This document shows positions 43,823 through 48,265 of a DNA stretch of 64,000 nucleotides, piece after piece (positions within the stretch are counted from its first letter, which is position 1; each line of letters begins with the position of its first letter). Origin of the DNA: Oceanispirochaeta sp. (lineage in GTDB: Bacteria > Spirochaetota > Spirochaetia > DSM-2461). The stretch is from contig CAXXXD010000003.1 in the NCBI GenBank assembly GCA_963663385.2, positions 864,001-928,000 of the forward strand. Direction: 5' to 3'. The notes under the pieces are model-generated. The model was not told where the DNA came from, ran no database searches, and saw only the letters and a program-made list of their open reading frames with translations. The translations under genes and the position numbers were made by a program.

Positions 43823-45361
43823 TCAGGACTCTTTGAAAATCCGATTGAATGTTTTGTTGAAATTATCTTTCAGCTTGTCAGAACCAAGGAATACGGACTG
43901 TATGGCCGATTCTTTATACTGATTCAGTTCGCTGCCAAGCTGGGATTTAATATAAGTCCTGTACTCTTCCGGGTACTCAAAACCATCCTGTTCGCCTATC
44001 AAAGAGAATAGAGCAACACTTCTGTCGAGGATTACAGGTTCAGATACATCGCCTTCTGATTTGAGAGCGAAAGCTTTCTTGAAGAAGTCATCACTGTATG
44101 CCGCTGCACTGAGCAGACTGTTACCGGTTTTATTACCGGCACTGTTGATAATAAAAGGGATATTGCCGTAGGCAGGAGCTATAAATCCGGTTTCTCCGGT
44201 CTCAATACCCTGTTCAGCGGCTGATGTGCTGAGGTTTGAAGACTGAGCAACAACAGCAAGCGCTTTTGCCTGACCTATCAGATAGTCTTCAATTAACCCG
44301 ACTTCCTCTCGTTCCATATAAGAGCGGATGCCCGAGAGCACATCGGCGTTTTCCGTATCTATTCCGATAGCATTCCCGGCTGATTGAAAGATGTAGAAAC
44401 CTGAATCCGTAGAAATAACTCCGCTTCTGGAACCATTGCTTAAGGCAAATACTTCATCTGCCTGTTCGCTGCTCAGGTAGGTGAGGAGGTTATAGTATGC
44501 CACCTCTCCCAGGGAACCGCCGTTTTCGGCATAAGAATCCTGAGACATATTTCTGGCAACTTCATCAAAACCTGAACCACTTTCCAGTTTATTAAGTATT
44601 TCAATAGCCTCTTTTTCTGAACCCTTAACAGTAATTCTGTTAAGATTCATTTTTGTAAAAAGTCTGGCATTTTCATTTCCGTAATCTGCCACTTTTTCTG
44701 CAGGGTAGGATGAATAGGGGTAAAGGGCGTAAGAAAAGTTTTTTTCAGGAGAACCCATGGAGAGAAGAAAATCAAGCTCCTTATCGGACCTTTTAAGATT
44801 GTATAGAGCATCTTCGTAATAAATCTGCACACGAAGGTCCTCTTCGATGGAGTCTCTGATTTCTTTCATACGTGAACCTGATGTATTCATATAGGCTTCT
44901 TCATCAAAGCTTCCGTTAGAGTTAAACATACCGCTTGTTACAATAGCACGGTCAATTCTCTTGGAGGATACACCGGCCCCGGCGCTGTCTATTTCTTCAA
45001 GCATAGCTGTTCTGACAACAGTCTGGTTGAATGCTGAACGCCATATAAGCTGTCTGAGGAAATCAACATTACTGTTGGTTCCAAGAGAATCCCTATACAT
45101 ACTATTGATGGATTCTACCTGTTGAGAAAAATAATTCCCTTGTGCAAAAGAAATTGGAGTTTTCCCGTATTTTCCGAAAACCAATGATCCCCTGCTGCTT
45201 CCAGAGCCTGACAGGGCGGGAACCAGTACAAAACTGATAACTGTTATTACCAGAATGATTATGGTTCCTGTCATTAGATTTTTTTGTTTTCTCTTGTGCT
45301 GATCTGCTTTCTTAAAGACTGATTCTCTGGAATCAGAAAGCTTTTTTTCTTTCTTAGACAT
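43823..45361 (-). CDS. SurA-N/PpiD-like membrane-anchored chaperone/PPIase
   Basis: N-terminal TM, F...G.FD...Y, parvulin-like FDEVAR.MSQD..A.NGG.LG. Confidence 0.75.
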   Translation of the reverse strand: MSKKEKKLSDSRESVFKKADQHKRKQKNLMTGTIIILVITVISFVLVPALSGSGSSRGSLVFGKYGKTPISFAQGNYFSQQVESINSMYRDSLGTNSNVDFLRQLIWRSAFNQTVVRTAMLEEIDSAGAGVSSKRIDRAIVTSGMFNSNGSFDEEAYMNTSGSRMKEIRDSIEEDLRVQIYYEDALYNLKRSDKELDFLLSMGSPEKNFSYALYPYSSYPAEKVADYGNENARLFTKMNLNRITVKGSEKEAIEILNKLESGSGFDEVARNMSQDSYAENGGSLGEVAYYNLLTYLSSEQADEVFALSNGSRSGVISTDSGFYIFQSAGNAIGIDTENADVLSGIRSYMEREEVGLIEDYLIGQAKALAVVAQSSNLSTSAAEQGIETGETGFIAPAYGNIPFIINSAGNKTGNSLLSAAAYSDDFFKKAFALKSEGDVSEPVILDRSVALFSLIGEQDGFEYPEEYRTYIKSQLGSELNQYKESAIQSVFLGSDKLKDNFNKTFNRIFKES

Positions 45362-45461
45362 GTGGAGTCCTTGGTAACGTAATTTATAATATAAGGCAAC
45401 GAAAAATTAGCACGAAAGGGTATACCTGTCAACTTGCGCAGAAAAAAGATTTACCTGGGTG

Positions 45462-45491
45462 TTGACACAATGCCCGCCCATTGGTTAAAGT
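45462..45491 (+). promoter_or_regulatory. sigma70 promoter of the tRNA-Asp/Pro operon
   Basis: TTGACA-18 bp-TAAAGT with GC-rich discriminator. Confidence 0.65.
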
Positions 45492-45503
45492 ACGCCCTTG
45501 TAC

Positions 45504-45577
45504 GGAGGCGTAGCGAAGTTGGTTATCGCGCCGGCCTGTCAAGCCGGAGATCGCGGGTTCGAGGCCCGTCGCTTCCG
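45504..45577 (+). tRNA. tRNA-Asp (GTC)
   Basis: Acceptor GGAGGCG/CGCTTCC plus G73; CCGGC-CTGTCAA-GCCGG; GGTTCGAGGCC. Confidence 0.95.
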
Positions 45578-45587
45578 CTCCGTTTTT

Positions 45588-45617
45588 ATCCGGCAGTCTG
45601 ATACCGGACTGCCGGAT
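45588..45617. other. Inter-tRNA hairpin
   Basis: ATCCGGCAGTC/GACTGCCGGAT inverted repeat. Confidence 0.7.
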
Positions 45618-45627
45618 TAATTTATAT

Positions 45628-45699
45628 CGGGCTGTAGCGCAGGGGGAGCGCGCGCCGTTCGGGACGGTGAGGTCGGAGGTTCAAATCCTCTCAGCCCGA
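45628..45699 (+). tRNA. tRNA-Pro (CGG)
   Basis: Acceptor CGGGCTG/CAGCCCG plus A73; CGCCG-TTCGGGA-CGGTG; GGTTCAAATCC. Confidence 0.92.
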
Positions 45700-46265
45700 C
45701 TTTTTTCCCATCTGAAAGTTTATCATATAAAGTTTCTTAGCTCATAGAAAGCTGTTGAGAGGATTTGAAGCGGAACCTCGGCGCGAATACTTGGAGCGCA
45801 AATCGACACGATGTCGATTTAGAGGTGAAGCCGGCCGGTAATGAGCAGGCAGGATGCCTGTGAATAGACGGCAGGTCCTCTCAGCCCGACTTTTTTCCCA
45901 TCTGAAAGTTTATCATATAAAGTTTCTTAGCTCATAGAAAGCTGTTGAGAGGATTTGAAGCGGAACCTCGGCGCGAATACTTGGAGCGCAAATCGACACG
46001 ATGTCGATTTAGAGGTGAAGCCGGCCGGTAATGAGCAGGCAGGATGCCTGTGAATAGACGGCAGGTCCTCTCAGCCCGACTTTTTTCCCATCTGAAAGTT
46101 TATCATATAAAGTTTCTTAGCTCATAGAAAGCTGTTGAGAGGATTTGAAGCGGAACCTCGGCGCGAATACTTGGAGCGCAAATCGACACGATGTCGATTT
46201 AGAGGTGAAGCCGGCCGGTAATGAGCAGGCAGGATGCCTTCGATTGAAGAGCAAACCTCTCAGCC
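45686..46265 (+). repeat. tRNA-linked tandem array: 3 x 190-bp units, each starting with the tRNA-Pro 3' end
   Basis: TCCTCTCAGCCCGAC at 45686, 45876 and 46066; units identical up to 46239; degenerate CCTCTCAGCC at 46256. Confidence 0.97.
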
Positions 46266-46446
46266 AGGGTACCGGGAATGGTTCAATCAGAAATGAGACA
46301 GACTGTTCCTGTCGAGTGCCAGTGATCTGATTATTGGAAAAGCACAGAGCAGGATTTAATGAAAAATAGATAAATGGCGGCAAAATAAAAAAACATGCAG
46401 GTATTTCCCGTTTCAGTTCCGCAATAAAAAAGCCGAAAAAATAACT

Positions 46447-47286
46447 ATGTTGAAAGCCAGGAAGCAACTCACAGTTATACTACTCATTTTTCTGATGGCG
46501 GCCCTGAATGCCCAGCCCTACTATCATACATTGAAGAAGGGAGAGACCCTCTACAGTTTATCCCGAACTTATGGAGTGAGTGTTCAGGAATTAATGAGTT
46601 CCAATGAAATTACCAGCCCGGAAAATCTGATTGAAGGCTTAAAATTACTGATCCCCACGGAAAAAACACCAGATAATCATGAAAATTCTATAGAAATTTC
46701 TGAAAATACGGAAAATGTAAATTATACTGTAAAAAAAGGTGATACTTTTTACCGCATTGCCAAACTGCATGGTATGTCTGTTAATGAGCTATTAATGCTG
46801 AACCATTTTTCCGGAAACAATGTCTTGAAGCCGGGAGATGTTCTTATTGTGAAAGGGACATCCGTTTCAGCAGAGCCAATCGAAAGACCGCCAGTAAGGG
46901 GAGAAGAAAGCGGAGTAGTGATTACGTCTTCCGCATCCGTTTCCTGGCCAGTTGAAGGGGTTAAGAAAACTCTTACCGGCAAGCTGAGGGGCATTACAAT
47001 TGAAGCGGCAGAAGCTGCGCTTGTTCAATCTGTTGCCTCTGGAAAAGTCGTATGGACCGGTCCTTACAGGGGGTTCGGTCAGGTTGTGCTGGTGGATGTG
47101 AACGGATATATCTATCTTTATGGCGGAAATGAGGATATTTTTGTCAATGTGGGTGAATATGTACCTGCGGGAGCCAGAATCGGTCGTTTAGGCAACTCCG
47201 GTTTAGCTTCCCGAACTGTAAATATGTACTTTTCCGTTTTTAAAGACGGTATCCCTGTGAGTGTCGTTTCGGCTCCCAGGGGATAA
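46447..47286 (+). CDS. 2x LysM + degenerate M23 protein (NlpD-like)
   Basis: Signal peptide, two KGETLY/KGDTFY LysM domains, WPVEG...GKVVW.G..RGFG; no Zn-binding HxxxD/HxH. Confidence 0.85.
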   Translation: MLKARKQLTVILLIFLMAALNAQPYYHTLKKGETLYSLSRTYGVSVQELMSSNEITSPENLIEGLKLLIPTEKTPDNHENSIEISENTENVNYTVKKGDTFYRIAKLHGMSVNELLMLNHFSGNNVLKPGDVLIVKGTSVSAEPIERPPVRGEESGVVITSSASVSWPVEGVKKTLTGKLRGITIEAAEAALVQSVASGKVVWTGPYRGFGQVVLVDVNGYIYLYGGNEDIFVNVGEYVPAGARIGRLGNSGLASRTVNMYFSVFKDGIPVSVVSAPRG

Positions 47287-47308
47287 TTTTAGGGAGCCCC
47301 GGTCCAGC

Positions 47309-48265
47309 ATGATGAAAAGCATTGATGATGATACTCGTGAAGTGAATAATGAAACAGATCCATTGGCTCTGTATTTGAAACAGATTTCCCGTTACAGTCT
47401 TCTTACAATCCATGAAGAACAGGATATTGGTATCCGTCTTGAGAAAATCGGTATCCAGATTGATGAACTGCAGAATGAGCTGGAAGAAAATAATCTGTCC
47501 CATGAGGATTTTAAAATACAGAAACAGCTGTTCGAAGAGCAATCCAAAAGTTTAAAGAACAGGATGATTCAGTCCAATCTGAGGCTTGTTGTTTCCATCG
47601 CCAAGAAATATCAGCATAGGGGGATGTCCCTGCTGGATCTGATTGATGAGGGAAATATCGGACTGATCGAAGCAGTCGACCGGTTTGATTATACAAAGGG
47701 TTGCCGTTTTTCCACTTATGGCACCTGGTGGATTCGTCAGGCGATTATTAAATCCCTTGCCGATAAATCCCGGATAATACGTATCCCCATTCATATGCTG
47801 AATACCATAAAGAAAAGTTATCTGGTGACAAAACAACTGACCCAGGAGCTTGGACGTGACCCTCTTCCTGAAGAGATGGCGGAGTACATGAACCTTCCTA
47901 TTGAAAAGGTTAAGGAGATTATGTCCCTTTCCCAGGAAACAGCTTCTCTTGATACAACAGTTGATCAGGATCATATGACAAGGCTCAGTGACCTGATCAA
48001 GGACGAGAACAACAAAGAACCTATAGAATCTGTTTTTAATCTGTCACTGCAGGATACGATCGATACAGTATTGAAACAGTTGAGTGAACGGGAAATGAAG
48101 ATTATACAGCTGCGTTTCGGTCTTAATGGCACAACTCCCTTAACACTTGAAGAGACGGGAAAGGTCCTGGGGATTACCAGAGAAAGGGTTCGTCAGATTC
48201 AGGAAATGGCTATTTCAAAGATGCGGAACTTCAAGATTATCAGGGATTTGGAAGATTACGTCTGA
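47309..48265 (+). CDS. Second RpoS/RpoD-like sigma70 factor lacking region 1.1
   Basis: DPLALYLKQI, NLRLVVSIAKKY, DLIDEGNIGL, FSTYGTWWIRQAI and TLEE.G..LGITRERVRQI. Confidence 0.9.
   Translation: MMKSIDDDTREVNNETDPLALYLKQISRYSLLTIHEEQDIGIRLEKIGIQIDELQNELEENNLSHEDFKIQKQLFEEQSKSLKNRMIQSNLRLVVSIAKKYQHRGMSLLDLIDEGNIGLIEAVDRFDYTKGCRFSTYGTWWIRQAIIKSLADKSRIIRIPIHMLNTIKKSYLVTKQLTQELGRDPLPEEMAEYMNLPIEKVKEIMSLSQETASLDTTVDQDHMTRLSDLIKDENNKEPIESVFNLSLQDTIDTVLKQLSEREMKIIQLRFGLNGTTPLTLEETGKVLGITRERVRQIQEMAISKMRNFKIIRDLEDYV

Follow-up and report, generated by a model that had tools for sequence, protein, structure and literature searches.

The tRNA-linked repeats (TLRs) of Escherichia coli have been known since 1978 without an accepted function, and a claim that the rtT repeats act in the stringent response was later withdrawn (PMC8144298). 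They occur in 22 copies at ten loci (Egan and Landy 1978; Rudd 1999; both as cited in PMC8144298), each with an 18-19-bp stretch that duplicates the 3' end of the upstream tRNA or rRNA, and are described as conserved within the Enterobacteriales only in the part of PMC8144298 available to us. Three of them, RrA, RrB and RrF, lie behind 5S rRNA between two terminators and are made by read-through. The RNAs made from them associate with Hfq and with CsrA (RrB having been probed in detail for Hfq), and in gel shifts RrB binds CsrA with a dissociation constant (KD) near 100 nM, binding that is lost when three GGA motifs are changed (PMC8144298). Here we describe a tandem array of similar design in a spirochaete, Oceanispirochaeta sp. 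(assembly GCA_963663385.2, contig CAXXXD010000003.1, positions 864,001 to 928,000 of the forward strand; this stretch of 64,000 nucleotides is the window, and positions refer to it unless a contig is named). The array starts inside a tRNA-Pro gene and belongs to a family found behind many tRNA genes of this class of bacteria. We give an even balance of credence to the reading that it consists of three tandem copies of a spirochaete small-RNA module of TLR design, which would be co-transcribed with the tRNA operon and bind CsrA.

The anchor gene, tRNA-Pro(CGG) without an encoded CCA, occupies 45628..45700 of the + strand (ARAGORN; Rfam tRNA 60.4 bits). From 45686, within its T-loop, to 46239, Tandem Repeats Finder reports a period of 190, 2.9 copies, 100% matches and 0 indels, in agreement with the three units of exact 190-bp period announced in the preliminary description of this DNA. 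Direct reading of the sequence places TCCTCTCAGCCCGAC at 45686, 45876 and 46066; it runs from the end of the T-loop through the 3' strands of T-stem and acceptor to the last base in the ARAGORN call. Behind the tRNA, unit 1 continues with a spacer of a T run and an A/T-rich stretch (45701..45755, +), at the place that a terminator hairpin occupies at most other loci, though not here. A covariance model built from nine copies (R1) then delimits the element itself, all copies being on the + strand: copy 1 at 45751..45893 (C3:909751-909893) and copy 2 at 45941..46083 score 138.4 bits each, and copy 3 at 46131..46273, divergent past 46239, scores 113.2 bits.

Copy 1 begins with a 5' arm, TGAGAGGATTTGAA (45756..45769, +), the exact reverse complement of tRNA-Pro positions 45680-45693 (T-loop, T-stem 3' strand and 2 nt of the acceptor), as had been noted at the outset. 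It ends with a 3' arm, TCCTCTCAGCCCGAC (45876..45890, +), an exact copy of the last 15 nt of tRNA-Pro, and the two arms form the closing helix P1. Between them stand the hairpins P4 (45800..45820, +), with a loop that reads CACGATG here and CAGGAYG in most family members, and P5 (45845..45861, +), with the loop CAGGATG at 45850-45856, which is of the CsrB-repeat type. The minimum-free-energy fold of a single unit is multibranch (-59.6 kcal/mol, z = -4.27; 0 of 200 shuffles equal it) and contains the two hairpins of the preliminary description. The degenerate fourth junction is likewise seen, as AACCTCTCAGCCAGGG at about 46254-46269, past the point (46239) at which unit 3 diverges, and the divergence at the end of unit 3 would agree with the idea that the distal copy is older than the others. 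An Rfam scan of 45300-46500 at E up to 10 returned the two tRNAs of this operon and chance-level rows, nothing else.

The number of units was followed in Logan contigs. In two runs from two studies (X1, X2), a 76-nt unitig crosses the unit-to-unit junction (45830-45905), and the word depth of a 174-nt unit unitig is about 2.6x and 3.6x that of the flanking contigs, respectively, a word depth that by the tool's own warning is no copy number and that comes from short-read contigs only. A contig of the low-depth run X6 joins 45685 to 46066 and skips 380 bases, which is either a collapsed repeat or a one-copy strain. This omission of two units is what an assembly artefact would predict, in which a single true unit had been multiplied by the assembler. 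The recurrence of the junction unitig in two studies and the raised depth of the unit speak against an artefact, as do the tandem state at another locus of the same genome and at 14 of the 62 loci with matches, and the fact that unit 3 has a diverged end of its own. We regard the artefact as extremely unlikely: at least two units are real, and three units are likely.

The array is not an isolated case. BLAST of the unit against its own genome returned six further, diverged copies of the core (71-78% identity), each just behind a same-strand tRNA gene, and R1 finds 14 matches with E below 1e-9 at nine loci, that is, at 9 of the 59 transfer RNA and transfer-messenger RNA (tmRNA) genes called by ARAGORN. 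Three copies each lie behind Pro-CGG and a tRNA-Met (with a 171-bp period), two behind Gly-TCC, and one each behind a second tRNA-Met, Asp, Val, Leu-CAA, Arg-CCG and the tmRNA; decayed remnants stand behind several more tRNAs. R1 also matches in 52 of 101 genomes of the same class (26 of 55 genera), with 0 to 25 matches per genome, and in 11 of 150 other genomes of an even sample of the phylum, seven of these 11 being outside the class. The presence of related units at other tRNA genes, which the preliminary description had left to be checked, is thereby confirmed. The family spans at least 15 tRNA isoacceptors and the tmRNA, in about half of the genomes of the class. A pattern scan of species genomes gave 92 stretches, of which the true ones bear titles such as Spirochaetales, Spirochaetaceae, Alkalispirochaeta and Spirochaeta; the pattern matches outside Spirochaetes are attributed to chance, as they have no adjacent tRNA and R1 matched none of the seven tested.

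A common layout is shared by these loci. The tRNA is usually followed by a terminator hairpin with a T run, then by a stretch antisense to its own T-loop, T-stem 3' strand and part of its acceptor 3' strand, then by the conserved core and often by a perfect duplicate of the final 15-19 nt of that tRNA. At the fetched loci a same-strand tRNA lies upstream of 69 of 80 matches, with first copies mostly 40-51 nt behind it, second copies at about 200-280 nt and third copies at about 415 nt; at least two copies are present at the 14 loci mentioned above. Among the 11 matches without a tRNA call, two same-sequence loci and one more are located behind truncated tRNA 3' parts and two behind the end of a tmRNA; a contig end truncates another, and the others are tandem members or solo copies. 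A terminator-like hairpin precedes the element in 46 of 57 first copies and follows it in 28 of 57, and the terminator spacers vary in sequence from locus to locus. In relatives (L026/L089 and L028) two elements stand behind tRNA genes that lack their 5' part, Gly(TCC) being present from the anticodon arm on and Leu from the variable arm on; another insertion may have displaced the front of these genes.

The arms follow the tRNA next to which they are found. Among 56 first copies, exact antisense runs of the 5' arm have a median length of 11 nt against the own tRNA (range 5-19) and of 5 nt against other tRNAs, and, likewise measured as an exact run, the 3' arm copies the end of its own tRNA over a median of 18 nt (range 3-21), again against a median of 5 for other tRNAs. 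The own tRNA is strictly the best match of the 5' arm in 17 of the 56 copies and ties for the best in 23. Of 48 copies, 32 keep at least 12 nt of the tRNA end, and these span the last 15-19 nt of the tRNA, starting in or beside the T-loop; in about a dozen cases the repeat continues through the terminator into the next unit. The suggestion that the antisense segment would track the local tRNA at other loci is supported by these values, and the co-variation of the arms with the tRNA is real. It rests mostly on the acceptor part, because the inner part of the arm corresponds to T-loop and T-stem sequence that is common to many tRNAs.

An arm in perfect complementarity with 5-19 nt of its own tRNA, in an element that lies close by on the same strand, is also what one would expect from a cis regulator of tRNA maturation. 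The 5' arm would pair with the 3' half of the upstream tRNA in a read-through transcript, or the copy of the tRNA end would act as a decoy for processing enzymes, and the yield of mature tRNA would be tuned in this way. The Gly(TCC) locus, whose 3' copy has degraded while 18 nt of the arm still match the tRNA, points in the same direction. Several features of the family do not. The terminator-like hairpin of those 46 of 57 first copies stands between tRNA and element, the arm has a nearer partner within its own unit, which is the one used in the minimum-free-energy fold, and second and third units are 200-600 nt from the tRNA. Moreover, a large conserved core and its loop motifs would be needless for this purpose, and an intact element is found at just 9 of 59 tRNA and tmRNA genes, of mixed identity. 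We consider regulation of this kind very unlikely, and in our analysis the arms make better sense as the helix that closes a small RNA, one that would mimic a tRNA end, as in the design of the published TLR class (PMC8144298). From the interpretation given in the preliminary description, the related units, the tracking arms and the likeness to rtT are retained, whereas nothing supports a targeting of tRNA genes by complementarity or an effect on tRNA-Pro maturation.

The core forms a conserved three-way junction, with P2-P3-P4 on one side, P6-P5 on the other and P1 closing it. Pairing was counted for 78 distinct sequences, five helices and 27 pairs, in an alignment fitted to the model, which favours structure: 91.7% of the cells pair, compared with 65.6% in column shuffles (0 of 500 reach the observed value) and 29-49% when the partners are slid by 1-3 columns. 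Both sides have changed in 23 of the 27 pairs, and RNAalifold on a plain MAFFT alignment of nine copies finds compensatory changes in 22 of 27. G-U combinations number 33 and A-C combinations 11. Within the junction, inspection by eye showed no consistent pairing between GAA-NN-GGA and AG-NN-GGC. The core is under clear structural selection. Elements carry on average 6.9 GGA on the tRNA-sense strand and 0.56 on the opposite strand, a 12-fold difference, from which we conclude that the sense strand is the meaningful one.

A fold of this kind might also serve at the DNA level. It is possible that the units are selfish, non-autonomous DNA elements without RNA function, whose folded single strand mimics the tRNA gene from the T-loop to the 3' end, so that a recombinase encoded elsewhere integrates them at the T-loop and generates tandem arrays. 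Such mimicry by folded DNA has parallels in the CTX phage, whose DNA mimics dif, and in the folding of integron attC sites. On its inner side the copy of the tRNA end stops sharply in or next to the T-loop (the last 15-19 nt), as T-loop-specific integration would leave, and the orientation is always that of the tRNA. Tandem arrays at 14 of 62 loci, the range of 0 to 25 matches per genome with many of them truncated or decayed, the grouping of cores behind different tRNAs of one genus, and helices that are nearly all Watson-Crick (1.7% G-U) would likewise suit a DNA element, which would in addition account for the need of an antisense arm. A tree of 79 cores (arms removed, about 105 nt) is too noisy to separate transposition from concerted evolution and clusters neither by tRNA nor cleanly by genome.

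The enzymes that such an element would require do not accompany it. Of 88 open reading frames (ORFs) of at least 110 codons flanking 35 loci, none encodes an integrase, a reverse transcriptase or a HUH nuclease; what surrounds the elements is a mixture of housekeeping genes and one unrelated IS66 transposase. Transposases of the Y1 type (Y1_Tnp) occur in 30 of 101 genomes and were not found in G006, G024, G028 and G099, which hold 19-25 element matches each. None of the nine Phage_integrase (tyrosine-recombinase) matches of the Oceanispirochaeta genome is at an element locus, its group II intron reverse transcriptases and IS110 copies are located away from the elements, and two degenerate patterns found 0 matches in viral contigs. 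The co-occurring recombinase, HUH nuclease or reverse transcriptase for which the preliminary description proposed to look was thus not encountered at the 35 loci, and Y1_Tnp does not track the element. An integrative element that uses a tRNA attachment site was rejected for want of an integrase within or beside the unit, and a hairpin element of the REP/RAYT or IS200/IS605 type for want of co-occurrence with a Y1 (HUH) transposase. The 12-fold strand bias of GGA, conserved loops that match an RNA-binding consensus and would be needless in a DNA mimic of an attachment site, and terminator spacers that differ among loci further argue against a purely DNA-level element, which we judge to be unlikely.

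A decayed copy of the element behind tRNA-Cys in this genome (C4:603892-604440) is cut by short repeats (GGAGAAGGGGAC...) beside a gene for a 170-aa Y1 (RAYT-like) transposase; we read this gene as an unrelated insertion with short repeats of its own. Five diverged Y1 genes in the genome suggest REP/RAYT systems. Nine near-identical reverse-transcriptase genes of the group II intron type, ten identical transposase genes of the IS110 family and three copies of a tyrosine-recombinase pair point to an active mobilome that is unrelated to the element.

The favoured reading, a small RNA that binds CsrA, draws on the loop motifs. The two most conserved hairpin loops, those of P4 and P5, have the form CA(G/C)GA(N)G. 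Among the 78 distinct elements, the P4 loop contains GGA in 68 (CAGGATG in 27, CAGGACG in 18, CAGGGATG in 10) and the P5 loop in 45 (CAGGATG in 22, CAGGACG in 10), while P5 often reads CACGATG, without GGA; one or the other loop carries GGA in 75 elements and both do in 38. GGA is also conserved in the loop of P3, where 57 of the 78 elements have it, and at the first junction, where 62 do. CsrB contains about 18 repeats of CAGGA(U/A/C)G in hairpin loops, and the consensus of CsrA ligands from in vitro selection (SELEX) is RUACARGGAUGU (PMC7652899). The P4 and P5 loop sequences equal the CsrB repeat letter for letter, and the presence of several GGA motifs, some of them in hairpin loops, is a feature that the family has in common with sequestering RNAs of the Csr/Rsm type. 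The CAGGA(N)G loops of the element look like CsrA binding sites, a putative role assigned from their sequence; the preliminary description had recognised the hairpins of the unit and missed their CsrA-type GGA loops.

The genome provides candidate partners for such sites. It encodes flgL-fliW-csrA, and in three of four flagellin genes the leader contains a hairpin GGCA(T/A)GGATGCC 39-48 nt upstream together with CA(T/A)GGAGG over the Shine-Dalgarno site (flaB-like leaders, outside the window, at C3:1228528-1229770, 1145590-1145734 and 1437995-1438139). This two-site arrangement is that of the hag leader of Bacillus subtilis. From this layout of CsrA sites it follows that the FliW-CsrA-flagellin circuit is probably intact in this genome. 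CsrA also binds over the Shine-Dalgarno site of Borrelia flaB (cited in PMC8668096). P5 of unit 1 (GGCAGGATGCC) resembles the hairpin GGCATGGATGCC of a flaB leader. When CA(N)GGA(N)G was strictly required to be closed by at least 3 bp, 178 sites were found on both strands of the 5.3-Mb genome; 16 of them fall inside the elements, which together make up about 2.4 kb, and four in flagellin leaders. CsrA was detected in 49 of the 52 genomes that bear the element and in 36 of the 49 that do not, and no element was found in the 11 genomes of the six families that lack CsrA.

A structured small RNA of the TLR kind might equally have a partner other than CsrA, such as Hfq, an RNase or another protein, and the GGA loops would then be incidental or serve a different binder. 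Fold and conservation would be identical in both cases. The frequent CACGATG in P5 would be easier to understand, and in E. coli RrA, RrB and RrF interact with Hfq as well, the other 19 TLRs not being predicted CsrA binders (in the part of PMC8144298 available to us). It is the identity of the loops with the CsrB repeat, their resemblance to the flagellin-leader hairpins of the same genome and the lack of elements in the 11 genomes of CsrA-less families that this alternative leaves without a reason, and we hold it to be quite unlikely.

A number of observations weigh against a CsrA-binding small RNA and are responsible for the caution with which we propose it. The association between element and CsrA (odds ratio 5.9, Fisher p = 0.006) ignores kinship, 36 genomes have CsrA without the element, and in three draft genomes (79-95% complete) with the element CsrA was not detected. 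In the tRNA-Pro array itself the P4 loop is CACGATG and lacks GGA, so that the full motif is present in P5 only. The P4 and P5 stems have 6-9 bp, compared with mostly four pairs or fewer in SELEX hairpins, and very stable stems may disfavour CsrA binding (PMC7652899). The enrichment of GGA is modest (6.9, compared with 4.7 in dinucleotide shuffles). The share of G-U among standard pairs, given above, is low for an RNA, and a DNA-level hairpin would fit it too. The RNA run X11 covered words of the tRNA only, and no Csr/Rsm family is among the Rfam matches at E up to 10. In E. coli, deletion of rrA, rrB and rrF changed CsrA phenotypes only modestly, and the 19 TLRs of tRNA operons score below 0.01 in a predictor of CsrA sponges (PMC8144298). 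No similarity to the E. coli repeat RtT was detectable: its Rfam family RF00391 has 0 matches in this genome (E up to 1; 45-bit gathering threshold; the E. coli control was detected), and with filters off the best score of R1 at the tyrT locus is 5 bits. Lastly, the origin of the exact arms at each new tRNA is not explained by the model. They could arise by a DNA-level mechanism, either a folded single strand that mimics the end of the tRNA gene or a template switch at the T-loop's palindromic TTCGAA, and this would be compatible with an RNA function.

The best reading of the module, as we model it, is a unit of about 145 nt with a 5' arm antisense to the T-loop and 3' strand of the tRNA and a 3' arm that copies its last 15-19 nt, the arms being paired as P1. 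It would be transcribed from the tRNA promoter, with transcription running past the first terminator where one is present, and its tRNA-like end would allow the enzymes of tRNA 3'-end processing to trim and stabilise it. An analogous idea of RNA-end mimicry has been proposed for RrB and RNase E (PMC8144298). CsrA dimers would be bound by the GGA motifs, chiefly by those in the CAGGA(N)G loops of P4 and P5, in competition with the leaders of flagellin mRNAs, and transcription of a stable-RNA operon would in this manner feed into the FliW-CsrA circuit. Tandem copies would multiply the sites and might be gained or lost by recombination or slippage between the repeated tRNA ends. We regard a TLR-like small RNA as the simplest account because it covers position, orientation, arms, fold, loop motifs and the precedent in E. 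coli.

The TLR class as such is already published. New, as far as we have searched, are the spirochaete family, its breadth over tRNA identities and the tmRNA, the co-variation of the arms as measured here and loops of the CsrA type, and in the literature on RtT/rttR and tRNA-linked repeats we found no report from spirochaetes. The family provides a second, sequence-distinct instance of the same design. Since it spans many tRNA identities and the tmRNA, with co-varying arms and a structurally selected core, the design recurs and is selected, and it is not the curiosity of one operon. More broadly, we put forward a proposal about which we are more doubtful than confident: TLR- and RtT-like modules may be widespread protein-titrating small RNAs on stable-RNA operons, which borrow a copy and an antisense of the 3' end of their host RNA for processing and stability, and in spirochaetes they may supply the missing RNA arm of the FliW-CsrA-flagellin circuit. 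If this is true, transcription of tRNA operons, and hence growth rate, would set the amount of CsrA that is free to repress flagellin, and the length of an array would be an evolvable dosage knob. A review of 2020 leaves open whether any bacterium uses both FliW and small RNAs on CsrA (PMC7652899), and CsrB-type loops in a FliW-bearing spirochaete bear on such combined control.

A pattern match to a sigma-70-like promoter (TTGACA, 18 nt spacer, TAAAGT; 45462..45491, +; 10 of 12 matches in a consensus scan, the assignment being from this pattern alone) stands upstream of the pair formed by tRNA-Asp(GTC) (45504..45578, +; ARAGORN; Rfam tRNA 66.6 bits) and tRNA-Pro. The genes that flank the array encode a SurA-like isomerase and a LysM/peptidase M23 protein (Pfam), in line with the statement of the preliminary description that no ORF, integrase or transposase is close to the array. 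The LysM/M23 gene (46447..47286, +) is the next one downstream and lies outside the element; it is followed by a gene for a sigma-70-family factor, and the two (46447-48265) form an nlpD-rpoS-like pair directly downstream of the array.

Other short repeats were seen near members of the family. At Gly(TCC) and Leu(CAA) loci (C3:1005365-1005944 and C1:573110-573400; L010, L015), the copy of the tRNA end is interrupted by a common stretch, CGTTCCCGAA(A/G)AAAAC(A)ACC, and a second short repeat, CCCTCGACT(A/T)CGCTCGGG, recurs close to these loci; this may be a further family of small repeats with the same landing sites. Behind tRNA-Met, tRNA-Glu(TTC) and tRNA-Gly(GCC) (C2:1183304-1183400, C2:1490991-1491060 and C4:282563-282630, respectively) a T-arm antisense without a core follows the terminator. 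These remnants reach a few bases into the T-stem 5' strand (GAA(A)CCC), in alignments that are short and gapped.

Like the TLRs of E. coli, the spirochaete elements immediately follow a stable-RNA gene (tRNA or rRNA) in its own orientation, copy the end of that gene at their 3' end, occur in one to several tandem copies per locus and encode no protein. They belong to a different sequence family in a different phylum, and an antisense arm that co-varies with the tRNA is not mentioned in the part of PMC8144298 available to us. As in TLRs, which are placed immediately downstream in a tRNA or rRNA operon, the array directly follows tRNA-Pro, and of the 11 family matches without a tRNA at least four are behind a tmRNA or a truncated tRNA. 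The copied end has 15 nt in the tRNA-Pro array and a median of 18 nt in the 56 first copies, next to the 18-19 bp of TLRs. The top match of R1 in the tail of E. coli rrnB is the TLR of that operon, a weak match under a rough calibration (11.5 bits, E = 0.0017). This repeat contains a P4-like hairpin with the loop CGGGAG, a P5-like GGCGGGCAGGACGCCCGCC and then a 13-nt copy of the 5S end, which lends weak support to a distant homology between the two families.

Further points of likeness concern RrA, RrB and RrF of rrnA, rrnB and rrnD. A terminator flanks these TLRs on each side and their transcripts arise by read-through, and the spirochaete elements, too, are often enclosed by a pair of terminator-like hairpins; both have several GGA motifs, two of them in hairpin loops in the E. 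coli RNAs. RrA, RrB and RrF differ in that they are anchored to 5S rRNA, are single-copy and lack the P2/P3 part, and that their binding of CsrA has been shown in vitro, whereas it is predicted for the spirochaete element.

The comparison with the E. coli tyrT repeats that was drawn at the outset is apt, and it extends to the details of RtT (rttR; RF00391), which is located behind tyrT and tyrV. Downstream of tyrV, each unit of 178 bp (190 bp here) consists of GGGGAAGGAT, antisense to tRNA-Tyr, a core and a 19-nt copy of the tRNA end, AATCCTTCCCCCACCACCA. RtT is present in 3.14 copies, the tRNA-Pro array in 2.9. The closing helix of the Rfam consensus is formed by antisense arm and tRNA-end copy, as in the spirochaete unit, and two internal hairpins have identical loops. 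The loops of RtT are GCA and not GGA, however; the CCA end is encoded in E. coli, and tRNA and unit are not separated there by a terminator. With CsrB/CsrC and RsmX/Y/Z, finally, the element has in common a tandem modular build and the repetition of CAGGA(N)G or GGA motifs, which lie in hairpin loops and in single strands. The two are not homologous, judging by the lack of an Rfam match, and their settings differ: CsrB/CsrC and RsmX/Y/Z are stand-alone genes under BarA-UvrY in Gammaproteobacteria that have no FliW, whereas the spirochaete modules ride on tRNA operons in a FliW-bearing phylum.

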